From: Planctomycetota bacterium
Lineage (GTDB): Bacteria; Planctomycetota; UBA1135; UBA2386
Assembly (NCBI GenBank): GCA_947501605.1
Contig: CANMWZ010000005.1
Location: forward strand, 32,001 to 96,000
Reading direction: 5' to 3'
Length of the DNA: 64,000 nt
In this document: one piece after another, positions 2,508-59,031 of the stretch
Numbering within the stretch: position 1 is the first letter of the stretch
Layout: each line of letters begins with the position of its first letter
Made by a program: the position numbers and the translations under genes
The notes under the pieces: model-generated
Database searches by the model: none
The model's input: the letters and a program-made list of their open reading frames with translations, nothing else
What the model was told of the DNA's origin: nothing

Positions 2508-3422
2508 TCACCTTACCGCGAGGGCGGCAGTCCGGCGCTGCTGCAGAAGGTTGTCGATCGTGTAGATCGCGAGCCCGGCCCAGATGCCGGCGAAGCACAG
2601 CGCGCGCGAGGCGGGGAACGGCTCGCCGTACACGTACACGCCAAGCGCGAGTTGCACGCTCGGCGACAGGTACTGCAGGAGGCCCATCGTGGTCATGCGG
2701 ATGCGCTGTGCGCCGTAGCCGAACCACAACAGCGGGATCACAGTGACTACACCCGTGCTCGCGAGCCAGACGAGGTCGGAGGACGTTCCGCGCGAGAGGG
2801 CGCCGTCGCCATTCGCGAACCGGACGGCGAGGAAGGCCAGTGCGATCGGCGCCACGAGCAGCGTCTCGCTCGCGAGCCCGGCCAGCGCGCCGAGCTTCGA
2901 GCGCTTGCGCAGGAGGCCATAGGTGCCCCAGGTCGCCGCGAGCCCGAGCGCGAACCACGGCACGGCGCCGAACTCGATCACCATCGCGAGCACGGCGAGC
3001 GCGGCGAGGGCGATCGCGACCCCCTGCGCGGGCCGCAACCGTTCGCCGAGGACGAAGCGCCCGGCGGCGACGTTGACGAGCGGAACGAGGAAGTAGCCGA
3101 GGCTGCACTCGATCACGCGGCCGCTGTTGACGCCGATCACGTAGAGCAGCCAGTTGCTGGTCAGCAGCAGCGCGGTGAGAAAGTTGCGCAGAGCCTGCTT
3201 CGGTTCGCGCACGACGGCGAGGACGGCCTGCAGTTCGCCGCGCAGCGCGCACAGGGTCAGCAGCACGAATAGCGACCACAGACCGCGGTGGGCGATGACC
3301 TCGTACGAGTCGAGGTGCGAGAGGCGCTTCCAGAACAGCGGCACCACGCCCCAGAACAGGTAGCACGCGGCGGCGGCGAGGGCGCCACGCGCGTTCTCGG
3401 GATGGGGGGCGGGGCCGGTCAC
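2508..3422 (-). CDS. rarD: EamA/DMT family transporter RarD
   Basis: About 10 TM segments; motifs YLFWG..PLFWK, HRGLWS, SLGYFLVPL, ET, GLLQYLSP and YGEPF. Confidence 0.9.
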   Translation of the reverse strand: MTGPAPHPENARGALAAAACYLFWGVVPLFWKRLSHLDSYEVIAHRGLWSLFVLLTLCALRGELQAVLAVVREPKQALRNFLTALLLTSNWLLYVIGVNSGRVIECSLGYFLVPLVNVAAGRFVLGERLRPAQGVAIALAALAVLAMVIEFGAVPWFALGLAATWGTYGLLRKRSKLGALAGLASETLLVAPIALAFLAVRFANGDGALSRGTSSDLVWLASTGVVTVIPLLWFGYGAQRIRMTTMGLLQYLSPSVQLALGVYVYGEPFPASRALCFAGIWAGLAIYTIDNLLQQRRTAALAVR

Positions 3423-3542: not shown

Positions 3543-4883
3543 GTGAAGACCGCGTACCTGACCGCCGCCGCCCTGCTGCTCGTTCCCGCTCTCGTCGCCC
3601 AGGACCCCGCGCGTTTCGCCGCGCCCGTTCGCCTCGAGGCCGGCGCCAAGAAGCTCGGCGCCAAGTCCCTCGGCGAAGGGCGCCTCTATCCGTCCCCCGT
3701 GCTGCACGACGTGAACGGCGACGGCCTGCTCGACGTCGTCGTCGGCGACCTGCGCGGGCGCATCACGTTCGCGCTGCGCGAGAAAGGCACCGGCGCTCCG
3801 CACTTCGCCGCCGAGCAGAAGTGGATGGGCGCTGACGGCAAGGAACTCGACTTCCACAACTGGTGATGCATCGGCATGAGTCCACAGTTCGTGGACTTCG
3901 ACGCGGACGGCACGCTCGACATGGTTGCGGGCATCTTCGACGGCTCGCCGCACCTCGCGCGCGGCACCGACAAAGGGCACGCACCGCCCGAGCAGATCCT
4001 GGATCGCGACGGCGCGCGGATCGTGATGAACGCGATGTGGGACTTCGACAGCAAGCCGCCGAAGTGGGTGGAGCAGACGCGCTGTGACCCCGAGGGCGGC
4101 ATGCTGCAGCGCGGGCACATCACATCGGCCTGGGCCTTTGACTGGGACGCCGACGGCGATCTCGACCTCTTGCTGGGCGACCACGATCACGGGCAGGTGA
4201 TGCTGCGACGCAATGAGGGCAAAGCGGGCGCGCCCGCGTTCGCGACCAGAAACGAGTACGTGCGCGTCGGCGAGCAGCCGCTCGTCGTGAAGGGCACCGT
4301 CACGACGCTGCGCACGATCGACTGGGACGGCGACGGCCTTTTGGACCTGTTGGTCGGCAGCATGGGCGATGCCTATGGCGGCGGCGAGGGCGGCGGGGTC
4401 TACGTCTGCCGCAACGCCGGGGCGAAGGGCGCGCCGCGCTTTCAGCCGCCGACCGTGCTGATCGAGCCGAGCGCGCGCGGGCACAAGGATGCTGTTCGCC
4501 CCGACGCCGGCCTCTACATGGACGCAGCCGATCTCGACGGCGACTCGGACCTCGACCTCGTAGTCGGCGGCTACTCGACGTGGACGCCGGAGCCGCCCGC
4601 GCTCGACGACATGCAGAAAGCGCGCGTCGCCGAGTTGCAGAAGCAGATCGCGGGCCTCGACGAGGAGTCGCAGCGCTACTTCGAGGCCCTGCGCGAGGCA
4701 ACGAAGGGGCTCGACGACGAGGCCTACACCAAGGCCTACGCCGAGTTCCAGAAGGGCGAGGCCGGAACGGCGCGGAGCGCGCGGCAGAAGCGGCAGCAGA
4801 CGCTGCGCGAGGAACTCGAACCGCTCGTGCCGGGGATGAAGCGGCAGTCGTTCACTTGGTACTACGAGAACCTCGCGAAGTGA
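3543..4883 (+). CDS. Secreted FG-GAP/VCBS repeat protein read through an in-frame UGA (3864-3866); candidate selenoprotein, 446 aa, Sec108
   Basis: GGAG then GTG at 3543; signal peptide MKTAYLTAAALLLVPALVA-Q. ORFs ending 3866 and starting 3876 are in the same frame, joined by TGG TGA TGC ATC GGC ATG. Five DxDxDGxxD(L/V/M) repeats span both parts. Confidence 0.75.
3867..3905 (+). promoter_or_regulatory. Putative bacterial SECIS element
   Basis: Upper stem GAGUCCAC (3878-3885) pairs with GUGGACUU (3891-3898) around loop AGUUC, G at loop position 2. Lower stem UGCAUCG (3867-3873) pairs with CGACGCG (3899-3905), one mismatch. Starts immediately after the UGA. Confidence 0.6.
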
Positions 4884-5494
4884 CCGCGCGCTGGGAGCTC
4901 CTCCCGCGCGCGCAGCAGCGCGTGATGCCGTGGCAGAACGGCTTTGGCACCACGCGCCAGGTCGCGATCGATCCGCCCGATGGCTCGCTCGCCACGGGGT
5001 TTCGCTGGCGCATCAGCGTGGCAATGGTGGGGCAGGGCGGACCGTTCTCGCACCTGCCCGGCGTCGACCGTGCGCTGTGGCTCGTGCGCGGCAACGGCAT
5101 GCGGCTCGCGATGCCAGATCGCGAGGTCGTGCTCGCCGAACCGTTTGCGCGCCTCGACTTCCAAGGCGAGACGCCGATCGAGGCCGCGCTGCTCGACGGC
5201 CCGTGCGAGGACTGCAACGTGATGACGCGGCGCGGCGAGGTGGTGGCGGCAGCGCGCGTCGTGCAGCTTGCGGCGCACGAGCGACTCGGCGTCGAGAGCG
5301 CGCCACAGCAGGTGCTGCTCGTGCTCGCCGGCAGTGTGCGTGTGGAGGCGCGGGCCCTCGCGCTCGGCGAAGGGGATGCACTCCTTGTGGAGGGGGATGC
5401 CGAGTTCGCGGTCGTCGCGTCCGAGGCATCGACGGTGCTGCTGGCTGCGTTCGTGTCGCGTCGTGACTCGTTCGCGGGCGAGTTGCATCCTTAG
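4880..5494 (+). CDS. HutD/Ves family cupin protein
   Basis: MPWQNGFGTTRQVA...FRWRISVA...GPFS.LPGVDR...DCNVMTRR; GTGA overlap with the upstream stop. Confidence 0.85.
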   Translation: MTARWELLPRAQQRVMPWQNGFGTTRQVAIDPPDGSLATGFRWRISVAMVGQGGPFSHLPGVDRALWLVRGNGMRLAMPDREVVLAEPFARLDFQGETPIEAALLDGPCEDCNVMTRRGEVVAAARVVQLAAHERLGVESAPQQVLLVLAGSVRVEARALALGEGDALLVEGDAEFAVVASEASTVLLAAFVSRRDSFAGELHP

Positions 5495-5805: not shown

Positions 5806-6981
5806 ATGATCCTTCGTACTTCCCTAGTCCTCTCCCTGTGCTCTGTGGCCGCGTTGGCGCAGACCAATCGCTCGGTGACCCTCGGTGTCGCGCCTGGCCT
5901 CGGGGTCACGTCGACCTACACGGCGGCGTATCCGACTTCGGCGGCGGGGCGCTTTGGGTTCTTCCTGCTGACGCTGCCGGAACTCACCGCGCAGCCGCTG
6001 ACGGTGCCGGGCTTCACTTCGAACGGGCTCGTGCGCGTCGACTTGAACAACCAGTTGCTGAACTCGTTCTGGTTGCTCGATGGGTCAGGGAGTCAGGGCT
6101 TCTCGGTGCCGATCCCGACGGACTACGTGTTCCAGGGGTTCTCGTTCGACGTGCAGACGGTGGACGTGGACTTTGGCGCGAGTGACCTCGCCTGGGCGGA
6201 CAATGATCTGGAGTTGACGATCGGGCAGGGGGTTGTCGGGCAGGGGCTCAACATGGTTCGGATCCCGGCGGGGACGTTCCAGATGGGGTCGCCTGAGCCG
6301 TTGAACGTAGCGCCGTTCTACAACCAGCCTAATGCACAACCCGTGCATGCCGTGACGATCACCCTTCCGTTCTGGATGGGGAAGTACGAAGTCACGCAGG
6401 CGGAGTATCAGGCGCTAATGGGCTCGAACCCCTCTGTCTGGATCGGGGCCCAGCACCCTGTGAACAACGTAGATTGGAACGACTCTGTGACTTACTGCGC
6501 GGCACTCACTGCAGTGGAGAGTGCGGCAGGGCGTGTGCCGGCTGGCTATCAGTATCGTCTGCCGACCGAGGCAGAGTGGGAGTACGCCTGCCGTGCCGGT
6601 GGCGCTACCGAGTTCAGTCACGGGCAGACTCTGGTCTGTAGTCAGGCCAACTTCAACTTCAGCACCGATTCCGTCATGTTCTGTGGGATCAATTCGATTG
6701 TCGCCGTCGGGAGTTACGCTCCGAACGGGTTCGGCCTGCACGACGTACATGGCAACGTCCAAGAGTGGTGCCTGGACGCTTGGGATGGTTCGGCGAACTA
6801 CCCCGCATCGCCAGTCTCTGATCCCTGGGTTTCTAGTGGACCGCTTCGAGTCCTCCGTGGTGGGCACGACCAGGTCTCCTCGGTGTATTGCCGCTCCGCC
6901 TATCGGCAAACAGGCCAGCCGAGCAGGGAGAACAGCACCATGGGGTTCCGGGTCGTTCTCGCCCCAGTTCTCGTCCCGTGA
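5806..6981 (+). CDS. Secreted protein with C-terminal formylglycine-generating-enzyme (SUMF1/CLec-fold) domain
   Basis: Signal peptide; motifs IPAGTFQMGS, YEVTQAEY, RLPTEAEWEYACRAG, NGFGLHDVHGNVQEWC, VLRGG and GFRVVLA. Confidence 0.9.
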   Translation: MILRTSLVLSLCSVAALAQTNRSVTLGVAPGLGVTSTYTAAYPTSAAGRFGFFLLTLPELTAQPLTVPGFTSNGLVRVDLNNQLLNSFWLLDGSGSQGFSVPIPTDYVFQGFSFDVQTVDVDFGASDLAWADNDLELTIGQGVVGQGLNMVRIPAGTFQMGSPEPLNVAPFYNQPNAQPVHAVTITLPFWMGKYEVTQAEYQALMGSNPSVWIGAQHPVNNVDWNDSVTYCAALTAVESAAGRVPAGYQYRLPTEAEWEYACRAGGATEFSHGQTLVCSQANFNFSTDSVMFCGINSIVAVGSYAPNGFGLHDVHGNVQEWCLDAWDGSANYPASPVSDPWVSSGPLRVLRGGHDQVSSVYCRSAYRQTGQPSRENSTMGFRVVLAPVLVP

Positions 6982-7317: not shown

Positions 7318-9396
7318 TCAGTGCCGCAGCGCCGCCTTCGGCACCTCGACGAACGCCTGCCCCGGCGCCGCCCAGCGCAGCTCGAGCTCCGCGCCGCCCG
7401 TGGCGTTGAACCACACGACCTCGATCGCATGCAGGCCAGCACCGAGGGCGATCGCGCCTCGCTTCTCGATGCTGCCGTGCAAGCCGTCGTTGTCGACGAC
7501 GAGCTGGCCACCGATCCACAGCTTGCTGCCGTCGTCCGACGACAGGGCGAAGCGATAGAGCTCGTCGTCCCCGACGTCGAGGAAGCCCTGGTAGCGCAGC
7601 GCCACGTGTTCGCCCGGGTTCTTCGGCAGCGCCACCGCGGCGGTCGTGCCCCAGGTGTCGACGACGAGGGCGTTGCGGTCGTCGGGGATCTTCGTCCACT
7701 CGACCATCGAGAGCTTCGCGAACCGCAGCCCCTGGTTGTTGGCAACGGGCTCGACCGGCGGCAGTGGTTCGACCTTGGTGAACTGCTGCTCCACGATCTC
7801 GGTCGCGCGCTCCCCACCGACGAAGCTCGCGGCGCGCAGCGTGCACGACGCGTCGATGCGAACGGGACCCGCCGCGCGCGTGCTCCCTTCCGTAGGCTCC
7901 GTTCCATCGATCGTCCACGTGGTGACCGCAGTCTTGCTCTCTGACGTGATCGACGCCGTGAGCGCGTGCACGAACTGCTGCGACTCGGCCTCGATCCGCG
8001 GCGCGCGCACGACGTCGAGCCGGCCTTGCACGACCACTTCGACGACGGTCGCGATCGGATCCGGATCGGTGAGCGTCACCTCGACGAACGGCGCCGTCGG
8101 CGAGAACGGCGACATGAGACCCGCTGGCGATTGAACCCCGCGGTCGCCGAGCACGCGCACCGACGTGATCGGGTTGGTGAGCCCCTTCAGCATCAGCGCG
8201 TGGTGGCCTTTCTCGGCGTCGAACAGGTGCAGGTAGATCGTAGACGTGTCCTCTGCAACACGCACGGTGCAGCGGCCCCACGGCGTCGCGTCGAACACGT
8301 TGGCCGTCGTGCCGTGGATCGACGCACCGTTGGTCGCCATCCACGCAGCGATCTGCTGCAGTCGTTCGATGGCCTCAGGAGGGAACGAACCGTCGGCGCG
8401 CGGGCCGACGTTCAGCAGGTAGTTGCCGCCCTTGCTCGCGATGTCGACGAGGTTCTTCACGAGGGTCGCGGTCGACTTCCACTCGGTGTCGGCGGCGTTG
8501 AACCCCCAATGGCGGTTCATGGTCATGCACGACTCCCAATCGACGCCTTCGACCCCGGTCGGCGGGATCTCCTGCTCGGGCGTCGCGAAGTCGCCCTTGC
8601 TCTCGCTACTCTGCGAGAACCCCTGCATGCCGGAGCGGTGCACGTCGACGCGGTTGTTGACCAGCATCGACGGGGCGAGTTCGCGGCAGAGCTCGAACAG
8701 GCGCACACCGCGCTCGTGGTTCCAGGTCGCTTCCCATTCGCCGTCGAACCACATCACCGCGGGACGGTACTTGGTGATCACCTCGCGCACCTGCGCATGC
8801 AGGTAGCGTTCGTAGCGATCGAAGTCGGCGCCCGCGGCGCTGCGGTCCTTCGCCTCCCATGGCCGCCGCGGCAGGTAGTCGTCATGGTGCCAATCCATGA
8901 TCGAGTGGTAGGTGCAGAACACGACGCCGTGCCGTTCGCACGCGTCGGCGAGTTCGGCACAGATGTCGCGGCCGTGCGCGGTGTTCATGACATCCCATTC
9001 GGTCTCCGCGCTGTCGAAGAGACAGAAGCCGTCGTGGTGCTTGCTCGTCAGCACGAGGTACTTCATGCCGGCCTCCTTCGCGGCGCGCGCCCACGCGTCG
9101 GCGTCGAACGCGGTGGGGTTCCACTGCGACTGGAACCGGTCGTAGGTGTCGATCGGGATCTGCGCGCTGTCGCGGATCCATTCGCCGTAGTCGGTCTTGC
9201 CGCCGTACGCGCCCTGCGGGATCGCGTAGAGACCCCAGTGGACGAACATGCCGAAGCGGGCCTCGCGCCACCACGCCATGCGGTCGTCGTGGGAGGCGGG
9301 GGCTGCGGTCGGGGACGGCGGTCGCGGCGTCGTGTTCGAGTCGTGGGTCGAACAGGCCGCGAGCGCGGCGAGCAAGCACGCGAGGGGAAGGCGCAT
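7318..9396 (-). CDS. Alpha-L-fucosidase (GH29) lipoprotein with Fn3-associated and PA14 domains
   Basis: Lipobox LAAC; motifs WWREARFGMFVHWG, KHHDGF, MWFDGEW and GGNYLLNVGP; C-terminal SSDDGSKLWI...VDNDGLH (PA14). Confidence 0.92.
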   Translation of the reverse strand: MRLPLACLLAALAACSTHDSNTTPRPPSPTAAPASHDDRMAWWREARFGMFVHWGLYAIPQGAYGGKTDYGEWIRDSAQIPIDTYDRFQSQWNPTAFDADAWARAAKEAGMKYLVLTSKHHDGFCLFDSAETEWDVMNTAHGRDICAELADACERHGVVFCTYHSIMDWHHDDYLPRRPWEAKDRSAAGADFDRYERYLHAQVREVITKYRPAVMWFDGEWEATWNHERGVRLFELCRELAPSMLVNNRVDVHRSGMQGFSQSSESKGDFATPEQEIPPTGVEGVDWESCMTMNRHWGFNAADTEWKSTATLVKNLVDIASKGGNYLLNVGPRADGSFPPEAIERLQQIAAWMATNGASIHGTTANVFDATPWGRCTVRVAEDTSTIYLHLFDAEKGHHALMLKGLTNPITSVRVLGDRGVQSPAGLMSPFSPTAPFVEVTLTDPDPIATVVEVVVQGRLDVVRAPRIEAESQQFVHALTASITSESKTAVTTWTIDGTEPTEGSTRAAGPVRIDASCTLRAASFVGGERATEIVEQQFTKVEPLPPVEPVANNQGLRFAKLSMVEWTKIPDDRNALVVDTWGTTAAVALPKNPGEHVALRYQGFLDVGDDELYRFALSSDDGSKLWIGGQLVVDNDGLHGSIEKRGAIALGAGLHAIEVVWFNATGGAELELRWAAPGQAFVEVPKAALRH

Positions 9397-10228: not shown

Positions 10229-11719
10229 ATGACTACTCCGCACTCGCTGTTCGCCACGCCGCGCCAGGACTTCGTCGCCGGCATCGTCGTCTTCCTCGTC
10301 GCGTTGCCCCTGTGCCTCGGCATCGCGATCGCTTCGGGTGTGCCCCCGGTCTCCGGGCTCGTCGCCGGCATCGTCGGTGGACTCGTCGTGCCGCTCGTCT
10401 CGCGCGCGCCATTGTCGGTCTGTGGCCCGGCAGCGGGACTCACGTCCATCGTTCTCTTGGAAGTGTCGAAGCTCGGTGGGCTGCCGCTGTTCTTGACCGC
10501 GGTGATGCTCGCTGGCGCGATGCAGTTCGTGATGGGCGTCGTTCGCGCCGGTCGCCTGTCGTCGCTGGTGCCGTCGTCGGTCATCAAGGGCATGCTGGCC
10601 GCGATCGGCATCACCATCGTGACCAAGCAGTTGCCCGTGGCACTCGGCGTCGATGCACCGTTGCTCGAACTGCACACGAAGTCGCCGCACGCAGGCTCGC
10701 TCCTGCTCACGGCGATCTCGCTCGTCATTCTCTACACCTGGAAGAAGACGCCGTTCGGCAAGATCGCGTTCTTGTCGCCGGCGCTGATCGTCGTCGTGCT
10801 CGCGAGTGTGCTGGCCGCACTTCTCGACGGCAATGCGACCTTCGGTCTCGCGGCGAAGGCCTATGTCGACGTCCCGCTCGGCGGCCTCACGTCGCTCGCG
10901 GATTCCGTGCCGCGCCCCGACTTCGGTGGGTTCCTGCGCACCGACGTCTGGATCGCCGCCGCGACGATCGCGGTCGTCGCGAGCATCGAGACGCTGCTCA
11001 GTCTGCAGGCCGTGGATCGCCTCGATCCCCTGCGCCGCCACAGTCCGCCCGACCGCGAACTGCTGGCCCAGGGTCTCGGCAATGCCGCGTCCGGCTTCCT
11101 CGGGGGCCTGCCGATCACGTCGGTGATCGTGCGCAGCGGCGCCAACGTCGCAGCCGGTGGCCGCGGTCGGTTGTCCGCGATCGTGCACGGCGTGCTGCTG
11201 TTCGTCGCGGTCGTGTTCGCGGCGTCGCTGCTGAACCGCATCCCGCTCGCCGCCCTCGCGGCGGTGTTGATCCAGGTCGGGCTCAATCTGTGCAAGCCCG
11301 CACTGTTCACCAGTCAGATCAAGCTCGGCATCAACCAGCTCGTTCCCTTCGTGGTGACGATCGCGGCGGTGATGGCGACCGATCTGTTGAAGGGTGTGGT
11401 CATCGGCATCCTCGTCGGTATCGCCTTCGTGCTGCGGCAGAACGCGCAGGACGCGGTAGTGGTCAGCACCGACCCGGACGGCGCGCTGCGCTTCCGTTTC
11501 CGCCGCGATGCGACGTTCATCACCAAGCCGCAGTTGTTGTCGGCGCTGGACGACGTGGCGGACGGGTCGCGCGTCGTCATCGACGCCACCGGCGAATACG
11601 TCGACCAGGACGTCAAGGAAGCGCTCGCGTTGTTCATCGACGACGGCAAGCATCGCGGCGTCCATGTGGAACTCGTCGGGATCGACCTCGGCGGAGCGAG
11701 TGCCGGCGGGGGACACTGA
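10229..11719 (+). CDS. SulP/SLC26 family anion (likely bicarbonate) transporter
   Basis: Motifs DFVAGIVVFLVALPLCLGIAIASG, GPAAGL, ELLAQGLGN and GGLPITSVIVRS; short STAS-like tail. Confidence 0.92.
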   Translation: MTTPHSLFATPRQDFVAGIVVFLVALPLCLGIAIASGVPPVSGLVAGIVGGLVVPLVSRAPLSVCGPAAGLTSIVLLEVSKLGGLPLFLTAVMLAGAMQFVMGVVRAGRLSSLVPSSVIKGMLAAIGITIVTKQLPVALGVDAPLLELHTKSPHAGSLLLTAISLVILYTWKKTPFGKIAFLSPALIVVVLASVLAALLDGNATFGLAAKAYVDVPLGGLTSLADSVPRPDFGGFLRTDVWIAAATIAVVASIETLLSLQAVDRLDPLRRHSPPDRELLAQGLGNAASGFLGGLPITSVIVRSGANVAAGGRGRLSAIVHGVLLFVAVVFAASLLNRIPLAALAAVLIQVGLNLCKPALFTSQIKLGINQLVPFVVTIAAVMATDLLKGVVIGILVGIAFVLRQNAQDAVVVSTDPDGALRFRFRRDATFITKPQLLSALDDVADGSRVVIDATGEYVDQDVKEALALFIDDGKHRGVHVELVGIDLGGASAGGGH

Positions 11720-19490: not shown

Positions 19491-22400
19491 TTACATGTTG
19501 CGCCGATACTGCCCGCCGACGTCGTACAGCGCCGCCGACATCTGACCGAGCGAGCACACCTTCGCCGCGGTCATCAGCTCCGCGAACACGTTCTTCCCGG
19601 CCAACGCATGTTGCTGCAGAGCCACGAGCGCCGCACTGGCTTCGGCCTCATGCCGCGCCTGGAAGGCCGCCAAGTCGTCGATCTGCGCCTTCTTCTCGTC
19701 CTCGGTCGATCGCATGACCTCGTTGACGATGTGGATCGGCGAGCCAGAGCTCGACAAGAACGTGTTCACGCCGATGACCGGCAGTTCGCCGCTCGCCTTC
19801 TTCTGCTCGTAGTGCATCGACTCTTCTTGGATGCGCGAGCGTTGGTACATCGTCTCCATCGCGCCGAGCACGCCGCCGCGTTCGCTGATGCGCAGGAACT
19901 CGGCGTACACTGCTTCTTCGACCAGGTCGGTCAGCTCTTCGATGACGAAGCTGCCTTGCAGCGGGTTCTCGTTGCGCGCGAGGCCGAGCTCCTTGTTGAT
20001 GATCAACTGGATCGCCATCGCGCGCCGCACCGAGTTCTCGGTCGGCGTCGTGATCGCCTCGTCGTAGGCGTTGGTGTGCAGCGAGTTGCAGTTGTCGTAG
20101 ATCGCGTAGAGCGCCTGCAGCGTCGTCCGGATGTCGTTGAAGTCGATCTCCTGCGCGTGCAGGGAGCGGCCCGACGTCTGGATGTGGTACTTCAGCATCT
20201 GGCTGCGCTCGTTGGCGCCGTACTTGCGCTTCATCGCGCAGGCCCAGATGCGGCGTGCGACGCGCCCGATGACCGAGTACTCCGGGTCGATGCCGTTGCT
20301 GAAGAAGAAGCTCAGGTTGGGCGCGAAGTCATCGATCGCGAGGCCCCGACTCAGGTAGTACTCGACGAACGTGAAGCCGTTGCTCAGCGTGAAGGCGAGC
20401 TGCGTGATCGGGTTCGCACCGGCCTCGGCGATGTGGTAGCCGCTGATCGAGACCGAATAGAAGTTGCGCACCTTGTTGGCGGTGAAGAACTCCTGCACGT
20501 CGCCCATCATGCGCAGGGCGAACTCGGTGCCGAAGATGCAGGTGTTCTGCGCCTGGTCTTCCTTCAGGATGTCGGCCTGCACCGTGCCGCGCACCGTTTG
20601 CAGGGTGTCTTGCGCGATCTTGTCGTAGACAGCTTTCGGGAGCACCTCGTCGCCGGTGACGCCCAAGAGCAGGGTGCCGAGTCCGTCGTTGCCGGTCGGC
20701 AGTTCAAAGCGGTAGCGCGGGCGCGGAAGCGCGCGGAACTTGGCGTCGATCTTGGCCTCGACTTCGGCGCGCAGACCGTGCGCCTCGATGTACCGCTCGC
20801 AGCGCTGATCGATCGCCGCGTTGAGGAAGAACGCGAGCAGCATCGGCGCCGGGCCGTTGATCGTCATCGACACCGACGTCACCGGGTCGCAGAGATCAAA
20901 CCCCGAGTAGAGCCGCTTGGCGTCGTCGAGCGTGCAGATCGACACGCCGGCGTTGCCGATCTTGCCGCGGATGTCCGGGCGCAGTGCTGGGTCTTCGCCG
21001 TAGAGCGTGACCGAGTCGAAGGCCGTCGACAGCCGCTTGTAGGGCTGCCCGTAGGACAGGTAGTGGAAGCGGCGGTTGGTGCGCTCCGGGCCGCCTTCGC
21101 CGGCAAACATGCGCGTCGGGTCTTCGGACACGCGCTTGAACGGATAGACGCCGGCGGTGAACGGGAAGCGGCCCGGTACGTTTTCGATCAGCAGCCAGCG
21201 CAGGCGGTCGCCGTGGCTGCGGTAGCGCGGCAGTGCGACCTTGGGGATGCGGAGGCCGGACAGCGAGGTGGTGTGGTTTGGCACCCGCACTTCGTTGCCG
21301 CGCACCGAGAACACGGTTTCGTCGGCGGCGTAGCTCTTGGCCATGCCGTCGTAGGCGGCGAGCAGTTTCTGGCACTCGACGTCGAGCAGGACGAGTTGCT
21401 GCGAGAAGGCCGCATCGAGTTCGGCTCGCGCTGCGGTTGCCGTTGCCGGCAGCATCGCCGCGGCGGCGCGCAGTTGGTGAACGCGTTCGGCCGTGTCGGC
21501 CTGAGTCTCGGCCCAGGATCGATAGGCGCGGTTTTGCTCGACGATCTCGGCGAGGTAGCGCGTGCGTTCTGCGGGCACGATGCTCGACATGGTCGGCTCG
21601 CCGATGGTGAGCGGCAAAGTGCTTTGCCACGCGCCCGGGCGGATGCGATCGAGCGCGCCGCAAAGCTGCTTGTAGAGCCTGCTCGTGCCCGGATCGGCAA
21701 ACGTCGACGCCATCGTGCCGTAGACCGGCATCGATTCGACCGGCTGGTCGAACGCCTTCTTGTTGCGTTGGTAGGCCTTGCGCACTTCGCGCAGTGCGTC
21801 CCTCGCCCCACGGCGGTCAAACTTGTTGATCGCGACCAGGTCGGCGAAGTCGAGCATGTCGATCTTCTCGAGCTGGCTCTGGGCGCCGAACTCCGGCGTC
21901 ATCACGTAGAGCGACAGGTCGGCGTGCTCGGTGATCTCGGTGTCCGACTGACCGATGCCCGAGCTTTCGAGCACGATCAAGTCAAAGTCCGCGCAGCGCA
22001 ACACGTCGAGGCCATCCTGCACCGAGTCCGACAAGGCGACGTTGGCGCGCCGGGTCGCCATCGAGCGCAAGTAGCAGCGGTCGGAGCGGATCGCATTCAT
22101 GCGAATGCGATCGCCAAGCAGCGCGCCGCCACTGCGTCGCCGCGTCGGGTCGACGCAGAGCACGCCGATGCGCATCTTCGGGAAGTCGAGCAGGAAGCGG
22201 CGCAGGAGTTCGTCGATCAGCGAGCTCTTGCCGGCGCCGCCGGTGCCAGTGATCCCGAGCACTGGGGCCACCCGTGCCAGCTTCGCGCGCCGGGCCTTTA
22301 GCTCTGGTCGATAGCGTTCTCCGTCATGCTCGACCAAGGTGATCGCGCGTGCGATCGCCGCTTGGTTCAGACTGTCGAGCTGCGGCAGTTGCGCATCGGG

Positions 22401-58767: not shown

Positions 58768-59031
58768 GGCTGCGCGCCGCGCCACGGTCGAAGGTCGTCG
58801 GGCGGCACGCGGCCATGGCGGGGCGATGCCGGTTCCCTCGCTCCGTCGCTCGCACACGGCGCCCGCTCTGGAGTTTGGCAGTGGCACTCGATCCTGCCCA
58901 CAGTCGCGTTGGTGGTGCTGGTCTGCACCTAGAGCGCGCTCGTCCGGTGTGCCTTCCGTCGATGCGCTGCGGTCAACTCACGCTCCATCGTGGACGCGCG
59001 GCCCTCCGTCGCGCACGATGCTGCGCTCGCG

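Follow-up and report, generated by a model that had tools for sequence, protein, structure and literature searches.

Does an in-frame TGA in a planctomycete propeller gene end translation, or does it encode selenocysteine (Sec), and what might such a residue do there? The question arises at positions 3543..4883 (forward strand) of a 64,000-nucleotide stretch of DNA from a Planctomycetota bacterium (assembly GCA_947501605.1, contig CANMWZ010000005.1, positions 32,001 to 96,000), referred to here as the window. A first-pass annotation had described two open reading frames (ORFs) in one frame, parted only by TGA 3864..3866, and had proposed that they form one secreted selenoprotein of the FG-GAP/VCBS type. 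Translation bore this arrangement out. The frame from 3543 to 4883 has a sole internal stop, the TGA, in the context N-W-(TGA)-C-I-G, and reading through it yields an FG-GAP protein of 446 residues that is predicted to be exported and to fold as a five-bladed propeller with an added helical hairpin. The TGA would encode selenocysteine 108, and the codon after it (3867..3869) encodes Cys109, as had also been claimed. The gene, which databases split at the TGA, is most likely a single intact gene in which selenocysteine stands beside cysteine.

A conserved TGA-Cys pair of codons

A sequencing error at the TGA was ruled out: contigs from four of four sequencing runs (three RNA and one DNA, from three studies) cover the codon unchanged, with no other letter at the site. 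Two of the run samples, X9 and X12, may be where the window DNA came from and are flagged accordingly; X11 and X16 are not flagged and share one study. In protein databases the gene is kept as its C-terminal fragment. The best 120 of 1265 protein-database matches are all 312-363 residues long and cover 74-75% of the query, and gene callers report the downstream part at 3876..4883 as a protein of its own (P0002, 335 residues, beginning at the ATG at 3876), an annotation that is likely an artefact. This downstream ORF has no hydrophobic N-terminal stretch. A likely signal peptide, recognized by eye in the translation, occupies residues 1-19 of the upstream part (3543..3599; GTG start; predicted cleavage after A-L-V-A), and a hydrophobic stretch of ten residues is found at the matching N-terminal place in 73 of 74 TGA-containing members of the family. 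The first-pass annotation had assigned a signal peptide and one repeat to the upstream part and four repeats to the downstream part. The division of the repeats held, with one calcium-type motif before the TGA and four after it; residues 1-19 are indeed hydrophobic, and the signal peptide stands as a prediction, as does export of the 446-residue protein.

The codon is conserved well beyond the window. Matches were obtained in 38 of 61 related genomes, and each match listed that spans residue 108 shows one TGA. When the column was mapped across 43 loci, 40 aligned across it and three did not; 35 of the 40 have TGA, which rules out a chance occurrence, and the five with other residues are distant FG-GAP proteins of 22-30% identity. 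Addition of 40 fetched regions, picked from weaker matches, brought the set to 74 TGA-Cys members with identities of 27-100%. Cys109 is invariant in all 74, and also in 122 of 122 full-length database homologues. The count of 74 was made with a pattern that required a TGA; the unbiased evidence lies in the 43-locus mapping, in an evenly drawn set of 301 genomes of the phylum and in the reading of this column in metagenome loci. The family profile matched 83 of the 301 genomes, and the family is widespread in Planctomycetota. Six candidates were scored per genome in this search. Among the matches listed, all that span the column have at least one TGA (extra stops in some rows were not examined individually), and three stop-free rows start downstream of it. 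The first-pass annotation had looked to homologues for a conserved TGA or a Cys at this position, and both were found: TGA is retained down to 27% identity, and Cys occupies the column in a subfamily described below. Trp, Arg, Gly, TAA and TAG, which it had named as evidence to the contrary, are absent from the column in family members, where the only other residue is His in one singleton.

One genome (G036) contains 19 matches to the protein, and 12 of 12 regions fetched from it (L057, L058, L083, L084, L086, L088, L089 and L091-L095) have TGA-Cys followed by a hairpin. Three of its copies adjoin an apparent transposase, presumably of the IS630 type. Two copies in the collection are damaged: L015 and L060 have a frameshift just past the hairpin, L060 with a second frameshift and a TAG in addition, and each is either a pseudogene or an assembly error.

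A SECIS-type hairpin and the machinery to read it

Just downstream of the TGA lies a hairpin of the selenocysteine insertion sequence (SECIS) type (3878..3898, forward strand), with an 8-bp stem and a 5-nt loop at 3886-3890 (AGUUC, G at 3887) that begins 19 nt after the UGA. The first-pass annotation had not pointed this hairpin out. The model for bacterial elements (bSECIS), as given in a 2026 selenoprotein catalogue (PMC13188914), calls for a loop of 3-9 nt, a stem of 4-16 bp, a G in the first two loop positions, a spacing of 16-37 nt and a minimum free energy of -7.5 or lower. The window hairpin falls within each of these ranges (5 nt, 8 bp, G second, 19 nt, and -18.4 kcal/mol over 54 nt). 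Across 72 distinct sequences, 89.4% of cells are paired and 39 two-sided changes occur, and none of 500 shuffles reached either value or the covariation score. The codons that form the stem are frozen in 34 close members: Ser is AGT in 23 of 23, Pro is CCA in 22 of 23 and Val is GTG in 32 of 32, against backgrounds of 7.6%, 12.7% and 41.7%, respectively, in long ORFs of this genome rich in third-position GC. This freeze of codon choice is stronger evidence for the hairpin than either single-sequence folding or the covariation statistics.

The presence of the hairpin was also compared between TGA and Cys copies, using deduplicated loci L013-L235 without rows that are gapped or partial at the column, and scoring a stem when at least five of six core pairs form. 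Stem plus loop G was found in 152 of 165 TGA copies, in 2 of 25 Cys copies and in none of 132 sites that correspond to it in other blades. The Gln encoded by the loop is likewise present in 74 of 74 TGA members versus 23 of 120 Cys members. That the hairpin tracks the TGA and decays in the Cys versions counts for Sec decoding and against a true stop. Variant loops occur in six TGA members (L127, L128, L130, L144, L220 and L234), in which the Gln codon has become an Arg or His codon or the G is shifted; these should be helpful for defining recognition by this SelB.

The first-pass annotation had advised a check of the genome for selA, selB, selC and selD, and all four are present. The selA, selB and selD genes exceed their profile cut-offs, and tRNA-Sec (selC) was found by ARAGORN and scores 79 bits with Rfam. 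The SelD gene, placed directly after selA (G000:C4:42485), is itself a selenoprotein gene, carrying its own in-frame TGA in a U-x-x-K motif. Two small ORFs, on G000:C7 (reverse strand, at 58886) and G000:C31 (forward strand, at 21082), have C-x-x-U and a hairpin with a G-U loop, and we take them to resemble SelW-like selenoproteins. Across the 301 phylum genomes, selA was found in 82 of the 83 family carriers versus 145 of the 218 non-carriers (p = 3.9e-11, a value that overstates the association because the genomes are kin). The sole carrier in which selA was not detected, G120, has selB over the cut-off, with two such matches on a single contig (G120:C294). Taking codon, hairpin and machinery together, we regard decoding of the TGA as selenocysteine as highly probable.

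The Sec-Cys pair and its possible role

Pfam FG-GAP/VCBS models match the protein over cut-off (70.7 and 31.4 bits). Five DxDxDG-type motifs, one in each blade and all on the forward strand, begin at residues 56 (3708..3725), 118 (3894..3911, its first codons overlapping the 3' arm of the RNA hairpin), 200 (4140..4157), 260 (4320..4337) and 330 (4530..4547). Their loop aspartates are 88-100% conserved, and the motifs suggest that the loops bind calcium. The structure model matches five-bladed folds best, and its top Foldseek matches are integrin alpha and CRTAC1, with a template-modelling score of only about 0.34 to integrin heads. Integrin alpha heads have seven blades; with five motifs and a five-bladed model, the protein is not a seven-bladed propeller of that type. 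The model also predicts that a helical hairpin (4608..4817; residues about 356-425) interrupts blade 5 between two of its strands; this hairpin is short or absent in some members, L061-L064 being without most of it. Two members have unusual architectures: P0248 joins a C-terminal family fragment to an alpha-alpha domain resembling squalene-hopene cyclase, and L138:1777-3471, a TGA member, has a C-terminal extension of about 250 residues and a Pfam match only to FG-GAP.

Where the first-pass annotation had put the Sec-Cys pair on a calcium-binding loop, the pair in fact precedes strand A of blade 2, ten residues ahead of the DxDxDG motif at the opposite end of that strand. Argued from the topology of the model, the pair would lie across the propeller from the calcium-type loops, on the face that holds the pocket in five-bladed propeller enzymes. 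Across 196 members, no reactive residues other than 108 and 109 are conserved outside the aspartate loops.

A subfamily of homologues has cysteine in place of Sec. Three full-length members came within the best 150 matches when a profile was run against 1.84 billion representatives, and a search seeded with one full-length Cys member supplied the best 120 of 341 matches, some of them named Pirellulales or Planctomycetaceae. Among 122 full-length homologues the pair is C-C in 121 and H-C in one (P0258), a singleton with an odd C-terminus whose His is possibly an error. The Cys-Cys orthologues are single uninterrupted ORFs. A metagenome scan, in which 80 of 131 relatives were kept, gave 36 with TGC or TGT, 38 with TGA and six unparsed by that pattern; over 27 distinct contexts the Cys codon is TGC in 19 and TGT in eight. 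The history of the column was followed on an unrooted FastTree phylogeny of a subset of 95 rows (64 Sec, 31 Cys), from which the trait column and the following 11 residues had been omitted. Six Sec/Cys changes are needed on this tree, at least five of them forced by starred branches. Single Cys tips are nested in Sec clades; L192 and L228, the only Cys copies whose hairpin is intact, are two of these tips. The pattern, on an unrooted tree in which L228 forms a long branch, suggests repeated loss of Sec to Cys. Because lost Sec becomes Cys in all but one of the full-length homologues, the side-chain chemistry appears to be under selection.

A link to DsbD comes from domain fusions. In 15 of the best 120 Cys-type matches, a rate inflated by a query that is itself a fusion, there is a C-terminal domain with an invariant Y-Q-x-C-x4-C-L. 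Pfam identifies it as DsbD_N (PF11412) in P0269, and precomputed annotation gives the same assignment for 7 of the 15. The fusion recurs in two TGA genes (L126, 47.4 bits; L215, 33.9 bits), and the DsbD_N domains fused to family members retain both cysteines. A 56-member cluster in the ESM Atlas, with FG-GAP repeats and with DsbD_N in 57% of members, is a lead only. The DsbD of this genome (G000:C9:77700-80060; L236, L237) has two tandem DsbD_N domains of the C-x4-C type, a transmembrane domain and a C-terminal C-x-x-C. DsbD-N passes cytoplasmic electrons to exported proteins, and we know of no FG-GAP propeller described as its substrate, although no literature search was aimed at this point. 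Because some members of both the Sec and Cys types are fused to a DsbD_N domain with its two cysteines, we suggest that the pair is a redox site recharged by DsbD; the fusions favour redox cycling of the pair or its being held reduced.

We therefore propose the following sequence of events. By binding the hairpin that follows UGA 3864-3866, SelB would cause this codon to be read as selenocysteine, and the product would be one predicted exported five-bladed propeller with adjacent Sec108 and Cys109. The reduced pair would be oxidized to a selenium-sulfur ring and then re-reduced by DsbD, in a cycle that would turn over an envelope or extracellular substrate chosen by variable pocket residues. 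This combination of SelB- and hairpin-dependent decoding with a DsbD-reset redox pair in an exported propeller is the best explanation overall, with a probability of roughly 0.6, and redox turnover of such a substrate by the pair, judged from sequence, is probable to much the same degree. More tentatively, and with the balance tipped slightly against it, the family could represent a new class of selenoenzyme: phylum-wide exported five-bladed FG-GAP propellers with a catalytic vicinal Sec-Cys ring at the mouth, charged by DsbD, whose paralogues have diversified for different envelope or extracellular substrates, with selenium common and probably ancestral and cysteine repeatedly derived.

Several observations weigh against the DsbD-reset redox reading or its parts. 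Taken alone, the window hairpin does not fold more favourably than its shuffled versions (z -1.04; 31/200), two of five alignment measures for the hairpin do not rise above shuffles (211/500 and 263/500), and the covariation score is nearly as high when the register is slid by +1 (0.216) as in the true register (0.223). A Cys version was not found in the 301-genome sample, in which 67 of 67 matches listed have TGA. The DsbD_N fusion is present in a minority of the family and the window gene is unfused, and no conserved neighbourhood pointing to a pathway emerged when 531 flanking ORFs were clustered. The inflated fusion rate and the overstated p value noted above must be counted here as well.

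The alternative that survives best retains Sec insertion and treats the reduced Sec-Cys pair as an extracytoplasmic trap for soft metals or metalloids (Hg, Cu, Ag, As), with DsbD merely keeping the pair reduced. The DsbD-N fusion is equally compatible with such a trap, blades 1 and 4 of some Cys-type members have His and additional Cys at the corresponding position, and metal or organometal handling is reflected in the names of several families with an adjacent pair (CU) in Table 1 of PMC13188914 (SaoL, HgcA, MbdU). However, a third ligand is not conserved across the family and no metal-handling neighbour recurs among the 531 clustered flanking ORFs (short flanks, no family scan), and we consider a trap unlikely. 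Less likely again is a permanently closed vicinal ring against which a sugar or another ring-shaped ligand stacks, the protein being a lectin or hydrolase. A vicinal disulfide in the carbohydrate-active arabinofuranosidase 1wd4 provides a precedent (PMC12102755). Against it, no acid outside the DxDxDG loops is conserved at 85% in both subfamilies, so a catalytic Asp/Glu and the acid-base mechanism of GH43/GH62 are unsupported; the protein shares 6-12% identity with the GH43/62 folds; a permanently oxidized bond sits poorly with fusion to a reductase-type domain; and a structural role would give little reason for costly Sec decoding.

It is very improbable that the TGA is a true stop, whether because the locus is a pseudogene or a pair of coupled genes or because the codon is misassembled or reassigned. 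Databases do list the C-terminal portion as a protein in its own right, the window gene has an in-frame ATG four codons past the TGA, and the frameshifted copies L015 and L060 exist. This ATG, however, is present in just 36 of the 74 members, a split would export one blade and leave four without a signal, the Cys-Cys orthologues are single ORFs, the codon is constant in four runs, and the hairpin tracks it. The propeller gene itself ends in TGA (4881-4883), which disfavours genome-wide reassignment of UGA. The least probable reading, that the UGA-hairpin is mainly a selenium-dependent switch giving the full propeller only with Sec-tRNA while the residue itself matters little, accords with the place of the codon a quarter into the gene, where failed insertion would yield a one-blade fragment, and with the tree's evidence that Cys can substitute, but not with the change of the position to Cys in 121 of 122 full-length homologues once Sec is lost.

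Neighbouring genes and comparison with known systems

The stop of the propeller gene overlaps the GTG start of a HutD-family gene (4880-5494, forward strand). Upstream, on the opposite strand, are an EamA transporter gene (2508-3422), which recurs in two same-genus loci, and a Methyltransf_24 gene (1601-2503). The EamA and HutD neighbours are not conserved beyond the genus, and HutD is not recurrent among the clustered flanking ORFs. Farther downstream we take 5806-6981 (forward) to encode a formylglycine-generating-enzyme domain protein, 7318-9396 (reverse) an alpha-L-fucosidase and 10229-11719 (forward) a sulfate/bicarbonate transporter.

The first-pass annotation had held that FG-GAP propellers lie outside the classical bacterial selenoprotein families. 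In agreement, none of the 119 families in Table 1 of the 2026 catalogue (PMC13188914) is of FG-GAP, VCBS or propeller type, although other sources may list one, and in that table the U-C order appears only in one (2Fe-2S)-binding form, GxUC. Term searches found no FG-GAP, VCBS or propeller term in the deep-Sep text and four supplements (PMC12013277) or in the BSepDB paper text (PMC13326102), and literature searches gave nothing relevant. NCBIfam returned no family for P0001 and no selenoprotein model among the six matched by 47 Cys members. If the proposal is true, a fold usually taken for an adhesin or lectin would be added to the bacterial selenoproteome, and FG-GAP proteins would gain a chemically active site and a tie to the DsbD reducing line. 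A family found in 83 of 301 sampled phylum genomes is being systematically annotated as fragments. Cys-Cys orthologues in named isolates (e.g. Lacipirellula parvula, P0357) make its function testable without selenium genetics, and the repeated Sec/Cys switches, with visible hairpin decay, provide a clean system for asking why organisms retain selenocysteine.

With FG-GAP/VCBS proteins (PF13517, PF01839; integrin alpha heads, CRTAC1, ITFG2 and the fungal PVL/AAL2 lectins) the family has the DxDxDG-type loops and Pfam matches in common; it differs in its five repeats and five-bladed model, its extra helical hairpin and its invariant U/C-C pair. The structure model gives it the same five-bladed fold as the GH62 and GH43 hydrolases, whereas no GH Pfam model matches this protein. 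The DsbD N-terminal domain is fused to some family members of Sec and Cys type, though the window gene lacks it. Adjacent chalcogen pairs are familiar from PQQ methanol dehydrogenase (a vicinal disulfide) and mammalian thioredoxin reductase (a Cys-Sec tail). As in vicinal-disulfide proteins, two neighbouring chalcogen residues could form an eight-membered ring for ligand contact or redox; no sequence relationship to those proteins was found, and the present pair differs in being Sec-Cys and in belonging to a bacterial FG-GAP propeller. The best-studied case of SelB/bSECIS decoding is that of the E. coli formate dehydrogenase genes. With SelB/bSECIS-dependent genes as described in PMC13188914, the present gene shares the in-frame UGA, the hairpin within the coding region, a loop with G-U in its first two positions at 19 nt, selABCD and Cys homologues. 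That review also states that Cys homologues are nearly always much commoner than Sec forms (PMC13188914), whereas within the genomes sampled here the Sec form predominates. The window gene is very probably a Sec-decoding gene of a family missing from the catalogues checked, in which a known mode of decoding meets an unlisted fold, a redox link open to testing and an adjacent Sec-Cys pair.
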